Shown: one piece after another, positions 26,414-26,910 of the stretch
Layout of the letters: each line of letters starts with the position of its first letter
Numbering within the stretch: position 1 is the first letter of the stretch
Source: Eledone cirrhosa
Taxonomy: Eukaryota
Direction: 5' to 3'
Length of the DNA stretch: 64,000 bases
Assembly (NCBI GenBank): GCA_964016885.1
Contig: CAXHJY010000492.1
Location: 1 to 64,000 of the forward strand
Notes under the pieces: generated by a model
The model's database searches: none
Told to the model about the DNA's origin: nothing
The model's input: the letters and a program-made list of their open reading frames with translations, nothing else
Program-made: the position numbers and the translations under genes

Positions 26414-26910
26414 ATTAGAATTGGTGCTCTGAAATAGCGATATATATATGAATGTATATACAGTGTATTTTGCAATACACTGTATGCTTAATTAAAAGCA
26501 TTTTGAAGACCTTACGCTATTGTTTTAGAGTAGTGAGTCTCACTTACTTTAAATTTTCAGCAAACAGGGGAGATAAAGCTGACAGAGCTCTGTTTCGCAC
26601 TTTTTGGTGCTTATCAAAGCTAACTACTCCACCTGTTTGCTGAAAATCATGAATGTTTGATTCTTATAGAATTCTAGTAATAATCAGGAACTGATTATAC
26701 AGAGCCGTTGCCGGTCAAGCAGAAATTGAAAATTAGAATTGGTGCTCTGAAATAGCGATATATATATGAATATATATATAGTGTATTTTGCAATACACTG
26801 TATGCTTTTAATTAAGCTCTGTATAATCAGTTCCTGATTATTACTAGAATTCTATAAGAATCAAACAGGTGGACATTTTCAGCAAACAGGTGGAGTAGTT
26901 AGCTTTGATA
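26414..26910 (-). mobile_element. Non-coding retrozyme-like element: 318-nt period partial tandem with 5' inversion
   Basis: Direct repeat starts at 26414 and 26732; segment 26654-26705 is inverted at 26816-26867; truncated inverted HHR copy at 26875-26910; abuts (TA)n. Confidence 0.6.
26553..26647 (-). ncRNA. Full-length type-I hammerhead ribozyme with U3-A8 compensatory core
   Basis: Minus strand: AUUUUCAGCAAACAGG-U-GGAG-UAGUU-AGCU-UUGAUAA-GCAC-CAAAAA-GUGC-GAAA-CAGAGCUCUG-UC-AGCU-UUAU-CUCC-CCUGUUUGCUGAAAAU. All helices are Watson-Crick; GUC triplet. Confidence 0.85.

Follow-up and report, generated by a model that had tools for sequence, protein, structure and literature searches.

Why does a 318-nt unit with a hammerhead ribozyme lie against a (TA)n run in the genome of Eledone cirrhosa, copied slightly more than once and joined to an inverted piece of itself, and what machinery could have put it there? 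The window analyzed here is the whole stretch of 64,000 nucleotides that holds this copy (contig CAXHJY010000492.1, positions 1 to 64,000). A sequence-only reading of the window had taken the copy for an insertion of a cephalopod retrozyme family. Positions of its parts are collected in Table 1.

Table 1. Parts of the hammerhead-bearing copy in the window, in window positions.
Feature	Position	Strand	Basis or remark
Full 318-nt unit, subfamily A	26414..26731	-	40 of 40 scored candidates full-length at 96-100%, window itself included
Partial second turn, unit positions 237-318 (84 nt), head-to-tail with the full unit	26732..26815	-	
Inverted arm, unit positions 27-120 (95 nt), small internal rearrangement	26816..26910	+	
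Type I hammerhead motif, extended stem I, 5x4 internal loop	26553..26647	-	
Catalytic core 5' strand UUGAUAA; U3-A8 replaces C3-G8	26611..26617	-	
Stem I, proximal, 4 bp (AGCU with AGCU)	26621-26618 with 26580-26577	-	Sequence
Stem I, distal: beyond the 5x4 internal loop 4 bp, U bulge, 16 bp		-	Sequence
Stem II GCAC/GUGC and 6-nt loop 2	26597..26610	-	3 of 4 pairs covary (21-row alignment)
GAAA	26596-26593	-	Sequence
Stem III, perfect 12-nt palindrome	26582..26593	-	Sequence; double hammerhead between adjacent units is a prediction
Predicted cleavage site after GUC, unit position 151	between 26581 and 26580	-	Sequence and hammerhead consensus
26-nt tail behind internal TA run	26414..26439	-	Tail absent (end at about 292) or present (end at 318), usually differing between the two arms
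(TA)n target microsatellite at 3' end of copy	26391..26413	none	

The motif has the parts expected of a type I hammerhead, namely the N3-U-G-A-N-R8-A strand, the G-A-A-A15.1/U16.1-H17 strand, three helices and an open stem I, in the U3-A8 variant. Placement of the cleavage site after GUC follows the hammerhead consensus. The earlier description of a complete minus-strand type I hammerhead with a U3-A8 core at 26553-26647 was confirmed from the sequence, by a folding energy far below that of shuffled sequences (z = -7.9 and -8.2, matched by 0 of 200) and by a hammerhead descriptor, for which 30 shuffles of the window gave no equally strong match (stems 4/4/4). The position of the 5x4 loop, 4 bp from the core, would allow a tertiary contact between loop 1 and loop 2. 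An Rfam comparison, which the same reading had proposed, did return a hammerhead model (Hammerhead_HH9, 24.3 bits, E 0.01), but below its gathering score of 52, a database cut-off and not a biochemical criterion; at gathering level no hammerhead is called in the window unit. The copy amounts to 1.26 turns of the unit plus a 0.3-unit inverted arm and holds one whole hammerhead only; the arm stops inside the ribozyme core and so carries half of one. No ORF of at least 80 aa was found within the 318-nt unit. The ORF-less unit, the inverted segment and the (TA)n end were thus correctly described. The terminal direct repeat is real as a period of 318 (76 nt at 97%), but it is not a fixed terminal repeat; it is an extra turn, the length of which varies among copies.

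The same segment had been said to fold into the hammerhead. The active fold is indeed possible, but it is not the predicted minimum. In the predicted minimum, the 5' half of stem III is instead paired to the 5' strand of stem I and UUG, and in the window unit this alternative helix lies 3.5 kcal/mol below the active hammerhead fold by energy prediction. For the four commonest family types the active fold lies 2.0-7.5 kcal/mol above the predicted minimum, and a lone ribozyme is predicted to sit in the inactive fold in these types by energy models that ignore tertiary contacts. In subfamilies A and C, stem III is predicted to be worth about -20 kcal/mol as a duplex, compared to -1.8 or less as a hairpin, and adjacent units are predicted to cleave as a double hammerhead through this palindromic stem. 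The stem III palindrome is imperfect in the commonest B type and in subfamily F, for which the modeled palindrome and alternative helix are both weaker. Were the monomer fold inactive, a circle would stay intact. Only 1 of 9 Xenopus retrozyme dimers tested by Li et al. 2026 (bioRxiv 10.64898/2026.07.22.740005) cleaved, so the window copy may be dead even if the family is not.

The assembly searched comprises 3.0 Gb. A DNA search with the unit gave 1,742 candidates, and all 40 that were scored match it over its full length at 96-100%. Exact matches to the core patterns numbered 931 for subfamily A and 188 for subfamily B, with none in reversed controls. A relaxed family core pattern matched exactly at 5,744 places genome-wide (control 0) and also revealed further subfamilies in which stems II and III differ in sequence. 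Pieces of the family were present in 3 of 40 evenly spaced 10-kb stretches. The sequence is therefore far from single-copy, and the reading as a retrozyme family is supported: the element is high-copy, young and non-coding, with head-to-tail copies and a hammerhead whose stems covary. Subfamily B has the usual C3-G8 core and is about 80% alike to A over the whole unit; its copies, at 83-89%, are more diverged than those of A and C (96-100%). Among the first 100 listed of the 5,744 relaxed matches the 3-8 pair is U-A in 67, C-G in 29, U-G in 3 and C-A in 1, so that a Watson-Crick pair is kept in 96 of these 100. U3-A8 is found in 99 of the first 100 listed A matches and C3-G8 in 93 of the first 100 listed B matches.

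Both-sided changes were seen in 7 of 24 pairs of a 21-row alignment, compared to 0-3 in slid controls; since the 21 rows are related, the independent covariation events are few. We also built a tree with the two core columns masked, omitting 4 rows without a pattern match. In this unrooted tree, 26 of 27 U3-A8 rows fall on one branch with support of 100/100, and the C3-G8 copies form the rest of the tree outside this group. The sole outlying row, L237, was not counted as a second origin of U3-A8 because it is rearranged and has a long branch. A change in the direction from C-G to U-A is suggested by one indication, the greater divergence of B. Stems I, II and III keep covarying inside the U3-A8 branch, and these continuing compensated changes argue that the U3-A8 core works; we infer that the ribozyme is under selection and that its U3-A8 form is functional. 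In young A copies, helix positions deviate at 3.7%, the core at 1.3% and the rest at 2.5%, so helices are not more conserved there. The family's variation, the stem II swap among it, is also seen in sequencing contigs (two runs, kind unrecorded). Finding U3-A8 here is less of a surprise than was first implied, since this core is published and is also used by coding Penelope-like elements (PLEs) of the same genome. Natural hammerheads with U3-A8, covariation of C3-G8 to U3-A8 and an earlier demonstration of activity in vitro have been described (PMC3088659), as have PLE hammerheads with a U3-A8 core in Schistosoma (PMC4209133).

Head-to-tail junctions occur in 44 of 55 A loci and 19 of 45 B loci, and inverted arms in 41 and 28 of these, respectively. 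In this sample, from which 10 duplicate loci were dropped, 30 A and 29 B loci had been chosen for the quality of their match, a choice that favors full-length ends. Ends were counted in 24 position-ordered A loci (30 fetched, minus 5 duplicates and 1 array). Of the 41 outer 3' ends there, 39 map to unit positions 283-292 or 318, mostly running straight into (TA)n, and the cut site at 151 has none in its vicinity. Two-armed A insertions pair a short with a long end in 13 of 17 cases and so carry the 26-nt tail on one side. Most copies are dispersed and 0.5-3.5 units long, and neither poly(A) nor target duplication was seen at family insertions. For PLEs, Craig et al. describe partial tandems, an inverted 5' copy, a one-sided tail of 30-40 bp and a bias to (TA)n (PMC8557442). 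The family has the tandems, the inverted arms, the one-sided tail (at 26 nt slightly shorter) and the (TA)n sites. Copying begins 140-167 nt beyond the cut and crosses it, which would rule out a linear cleaved monomer as the template; the template would be a circle or an uncleaved multimer. The genomic anatomy fits both copying round a circle and PLE enzymes.

We think it probable that the window holds a copy of a young 318-nt non-LTR retrozyme that is transcribed in tandem, cleaves itself as predicted, forms a circle and is reinserted into (TA)n by a Neptune-type PLE. Tandem loci would be transcribed, and adjacent units of the transcripts, paired through stem III, would cleave after GUC as a double hammerhead. 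The lone monomer would then fold into the inactive helix, keeping the circle, which could be closed by a host RNA ligase by analogy with other animal retrozymes, for which this has been proposed (PMC7229834). A Neptune-type enzyme, combining reverse transcriptase (RT) and GIY-YIG endonuclease, would nick a (TA)n run and start synthesis at either of two sites that end in TA, lying 140 and 167 nt beyond the cut; it would then read through the ligation point and go round the template for 0.5 to more than 6 turns. The inverted arm would come from a second cDNA, with its primer on the opposite side of the break.

The 3' ends past the cut site and the multi-unit copies follow equally well if the same PLE-mobilized family were copied from uncleaved or partly cleaved linear multimers of tandem loci, with no circle and with a ribozyme that trims or is mostly off. 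We regard this as unlikely, but it is the most serious of the alternatives. In its favor, there are tandem loci with as many as about 17 units, the predicted monomer fold is inactive, and tandem and inverted structures of the same kind are made by PLE clades that lack hammerheads (PMC8557442). Against it stands one insertion of about 6.5 units between TA runs, in which 4 of 5 units compared have the same sequence and the remaining one departs from it at 1 of 316 bases; its nearest sampled relative is 96% alike. The long array that was examined (G000:C1:82390457-82395955; L161, L162) has about 17 units that are 11.5% apart and about 10% from dispersed copies, and so is not the source of this insertion; the divergence of its units also led us to reject it as a master locus. 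Many of its cores are damaged, and its indels at the border of stem I and core may reflect decay, selection against cleavage or assembly error. The covariation of the ribozyme has been sustained, and circles are documented for coral, mussel and axolotl retrozymes (PMC7229834), both of which also speak against the multimer. Diagnostic letters are shared within an insertion in 69 of 81 tandem and 141 of 155 inverted comparisons (85-91%), compared to 56% between loci, and rare variants in 5-8% compared to 0.8%. Overall distances within insertions are close to those between them (4.3-4.4% versus 5.3% in A; 2.4% and 2.0% versus 2.1% in C), so most multi-unit copies cannot separate a circle from a multimer.

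Helper candidates were sought among the PLEs of the same genome, in which 10,596 GIY-YIG candidates were found and 50 loci were examined. Several families combine RT, a CX4CxxC linker and, at the C-terminus, a GIY-YIG domain, with an open frame of 938 aa in L091. The motif of the Neptune clade (RT, CX2-5CxxC linker, GIY-YIG at the C-terminus) is present in 5 of 6 helper frames; Nematis has the same motif, so the frames fit Neptune or Nematis, and we use the label "Neptune-type" for them. The coding PLEs terminate in (TA)n, with the same pair of 3' ends as the retrozyme, close to which lie minimal hammerheads, several of them with U3-A8. Young members in which the RT/GIY-YIG frame is long and open and the pseudo-LTRs (pLTRs) bear minimal hammerheads include L091 (G000:C1:145869500-145876500), L092 and L094. 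The core is U3-A8 in three PLE families and C3-G8 in one; the U3-A8 family L071/L101 reads GCA in place of the expected GAA. A search for homologues of the helper protein gave 655 hits, indicating a widespread RT/GIY-YIG family. Four PLE-protein relatives (P0012, P0037, P0055 and P0110) are filed under bivalve bacterial symbionts and are probably host DNA in those assemblies.

Could the unit itself be the pLTR of an unsampled coding Penelope-like family, and its copies 5'-truncated debris? The unit agrees with the ends of coding PLEs in architecture, tail and U3-A8 core, and the 50 loci were drawn from more than 10,000 GIY-YIG candidates. We nevertheless consider this improbable. None of the sampled copies falls in the pLTR of a coding element or enters a coding body, and in this sample no collinearity with an RT and GIY-YIG frame was found. 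In the 50 PLE loci, BLAST detected no similarity of the unit to pLTRs beyond TA runs and one nested copy, and a shared non-unit 5' flank extending the element was seen in 0 of 100 family loci; the unit is thus not a pLTR known in this genome. Upstream of unit position 1, position 318 follows again in 63 of 100 loci, and the others show truncation or inversion. PLE protein hits in family loci belong to several unrelated PLE families and lie in scattered places, and the coding PLEs have minimal hammerheads, in contrast to the full-length one of the unit. A satellite-like or LINE-mobilized SINE-like repeat, amplified mainly as DNA and bearing a fossil hammerhead-like motif, would suit the 17-unit array with its many damaged cores but is very improbable given the dispersal of most copies as pieces of 0.5-3.5 units, their fixed 3' ends in (TA)n, their fold-back inversions, the compensatory changes across subfamilies and the lack of visible poly(A) or target duplication.

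For a retrozyme moved by a PLE, the most direct hint at a shared mobilizing enzyme comes from chimeras. In 3 of 156 distinct insertions (L204, L208 and L226), a coding PLE contributes its inverted 3' end as one arm, back-to-back with a retrozyme arm; the end counts of this set are noisy owing to TA-run matches, and it was used for the number of insertions and the list of chimeras alone. The joints are at truncated 5' ends with no TA run between the arms, twice through a fold-back. The partner belongs to the L091 family in L204 and L208 and to the L094 family, at 99%, in L226, giving three cases, without formal statistics, from two different PLE families. Nested insertion would be expected to leave PLE sequence flanking both sides, and this is not seen. 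A search with the L208 junction found no more chimeras among 40 scored of 758 candidates. U3-A8 was rejected as a helper marker because the chimeras involve two PLE families that differ in their cores. We did not count as chimeras L002 and L033, in which a PLE adjoins the element at its TA end, or L038, with a 190-nt spacer. In L045, L131 and L132 the retrozyme is joined in like manner to other hammerhead-bearing repeats, which suggests that PLEs in general give rise to insertions with two unlike arms. A bolder picture, which we put forward tentatively and with more doubt than conviction, is that inverted insertions of PLE type consist of two cDNAs primed separately at a (TA)n break and can take two different RNAs, and that the ribozyme is a conserved switch, held off by a covarying alternative helix while in the monomer circle and turned on by the palindromic stem III when in tandem transcripts, in a genome with some 100,000 unannotated hammerheads. 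If this were true, retrozyme-Neptune chimeras would be direct genomic proof of the enzyme that moves animal retrozymes.

Metazoan non-LTR retrozymes have a canonical-size type I hammerhead in a low-GC, ORF-less tandem unit of 150-450 bp that is present in thousands of copies; that of mussel measures 350-390 bp, and PLEs have been proposed as helpers (Cervera and de la Pena 2020, PMC7229834). The family agrees with these in unit size, type I hammerhead, ORF-less tandems and thousands of copies, being a non-coding head-to-tail unit within the 150-450 bp range, dispersed and high-copy, with no LTR and no coding body. It differs from the retrozymes described in the available text of that paper in the U3-A8 core of most subfamilies, the 12-nt palindromic stem III, the inverted arms, the one-sided tail, the (TA)n targeting and the lack of visible target duplication, and it is known here from DNA alone. 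Its fold is predicted to be self-blocking, whereas most animal retrozyme circles are predicted to leave the ribozyme free (PMC7229834). For vertebrates, Li, Clavereau and Pollet (2026, bioRxiv 10.64898/2026.07.22.740005) regard retrozymes as non-autonomous PLE derivatives on the evidence of co-distribution and pLTR similarity. Their retrozymes share with ours the co-occurrence with Neptune or Neptune-type PLEs and the presence of monomers, dimers and multimers, and the amphibian average unit is near 316 bp. As given in the available text of the preprint, 24 of 57 Xenopus families match known elements, in contrast to the family here, which has no detectable pLTR similarity; our evidence lies instead in how the insertions are built and in the back-to-back joints to the 3' ends of coding PLEs.

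The resemblance to the pLTRs of Neptune-type PLEs extends to a hammerhead placed 100-270 nt ahead of a 3' end in TA, partial tandems, an inverted 5' copy, a one-sided tail, a palindromic helix III and U3-A8 cores, found in Schistosoma and in the coding PLEs here (PMC4209133, PMC8557442). Unlike those pLTRs, as far as described in the available texts, the unit has no coding body and carries a full-length ribozyme with a stem I of about 24 bp rather than a minimal one. Compared to the natural U3-A8 variants already described (PMC3088659), C3-G8 and U3-A8 occur here together in one family and one genome, so that natural, matched backgrounds are available for studying the switch. Animal non-LTR retrozymes, their proposed PLE link and U3-A8 cores are already published; the matched C3-G8/U3-A8 subfamilies, the chimeric insertions and the hammerhead density are above routine, and the genomic evidence on mechanism is unusually direct. 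In the literature we found no report of cephalopod retrozymes or retrozyme-PLE chimeras, though subscription papers, repeat databases or the supplement of PMC7229834 may hold one. The words "Octopus" and "cephalopod" do not occur in the main text of PMC7229834, nor do ribozyme, hammerhead or retrozyme in the main text of a 2026 octopus repeat annotation (PMC13282606). The movement of animal retrozymes and the origin of tandem and inverted PLE insertions are named as open questions in the available texts (PMC7229834, PMC8557442). The family supplies young near-identical copies, a candidate helper with an open frame, mixed insertions, two fixed priming sites and sister ribozymes, with which helper identity, circle templating and dimer-dependent cleavage become testable.

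Other hammerheads are frequent in the genome. A type I descriptor gave 21 hits in 399.6 kb (40 evenly spaced 10-kb stretches, L163-L202), lying in 12 of the 40 stretches, with 0-4 hits in 10 shuffles and 1 in the reversed control. This corresponds to about one hammerhead per 20 kb, from many families, and to perhaps 150,000 genome-wide if the sample is typical. The family thus exemplifies a large hammerhead load that is missed by Rfam cut-offs. Within the window, two further hammerhead motifs belong to other repeat families, with cores starting at 9070 (+), in a short unit between TA runs, and at 41559 (-). A rearranged repeat piece at about 24680-24900 contains a minus-strand CUGAUGA ... GAAAC ... 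GUC core within a 70-nt tandem.

The flanks of the retrozyme copy resemble tRNA-type SINEs. About 0.8 kb upstream of the copy, the exon-like frame at 25394-25624 (+) resembles the last membrane helix of an SLC6 neurotransmitter transporter, of which further exons lie at 19823-20122 and 22580-22861 (+); Pfam SNF matches these first two. The ribozyme is antisense to the SLC6 frame, so no effect on the SLC6 mRNA is expected. On the other side of the copy, a 650-aa open frame at 31226-33178 (+), without a Pfam match, has a CxxC-x4-H-x4-C-like knuckle and a proline-rich tail, and looks like the ORF1 of a retroelement.
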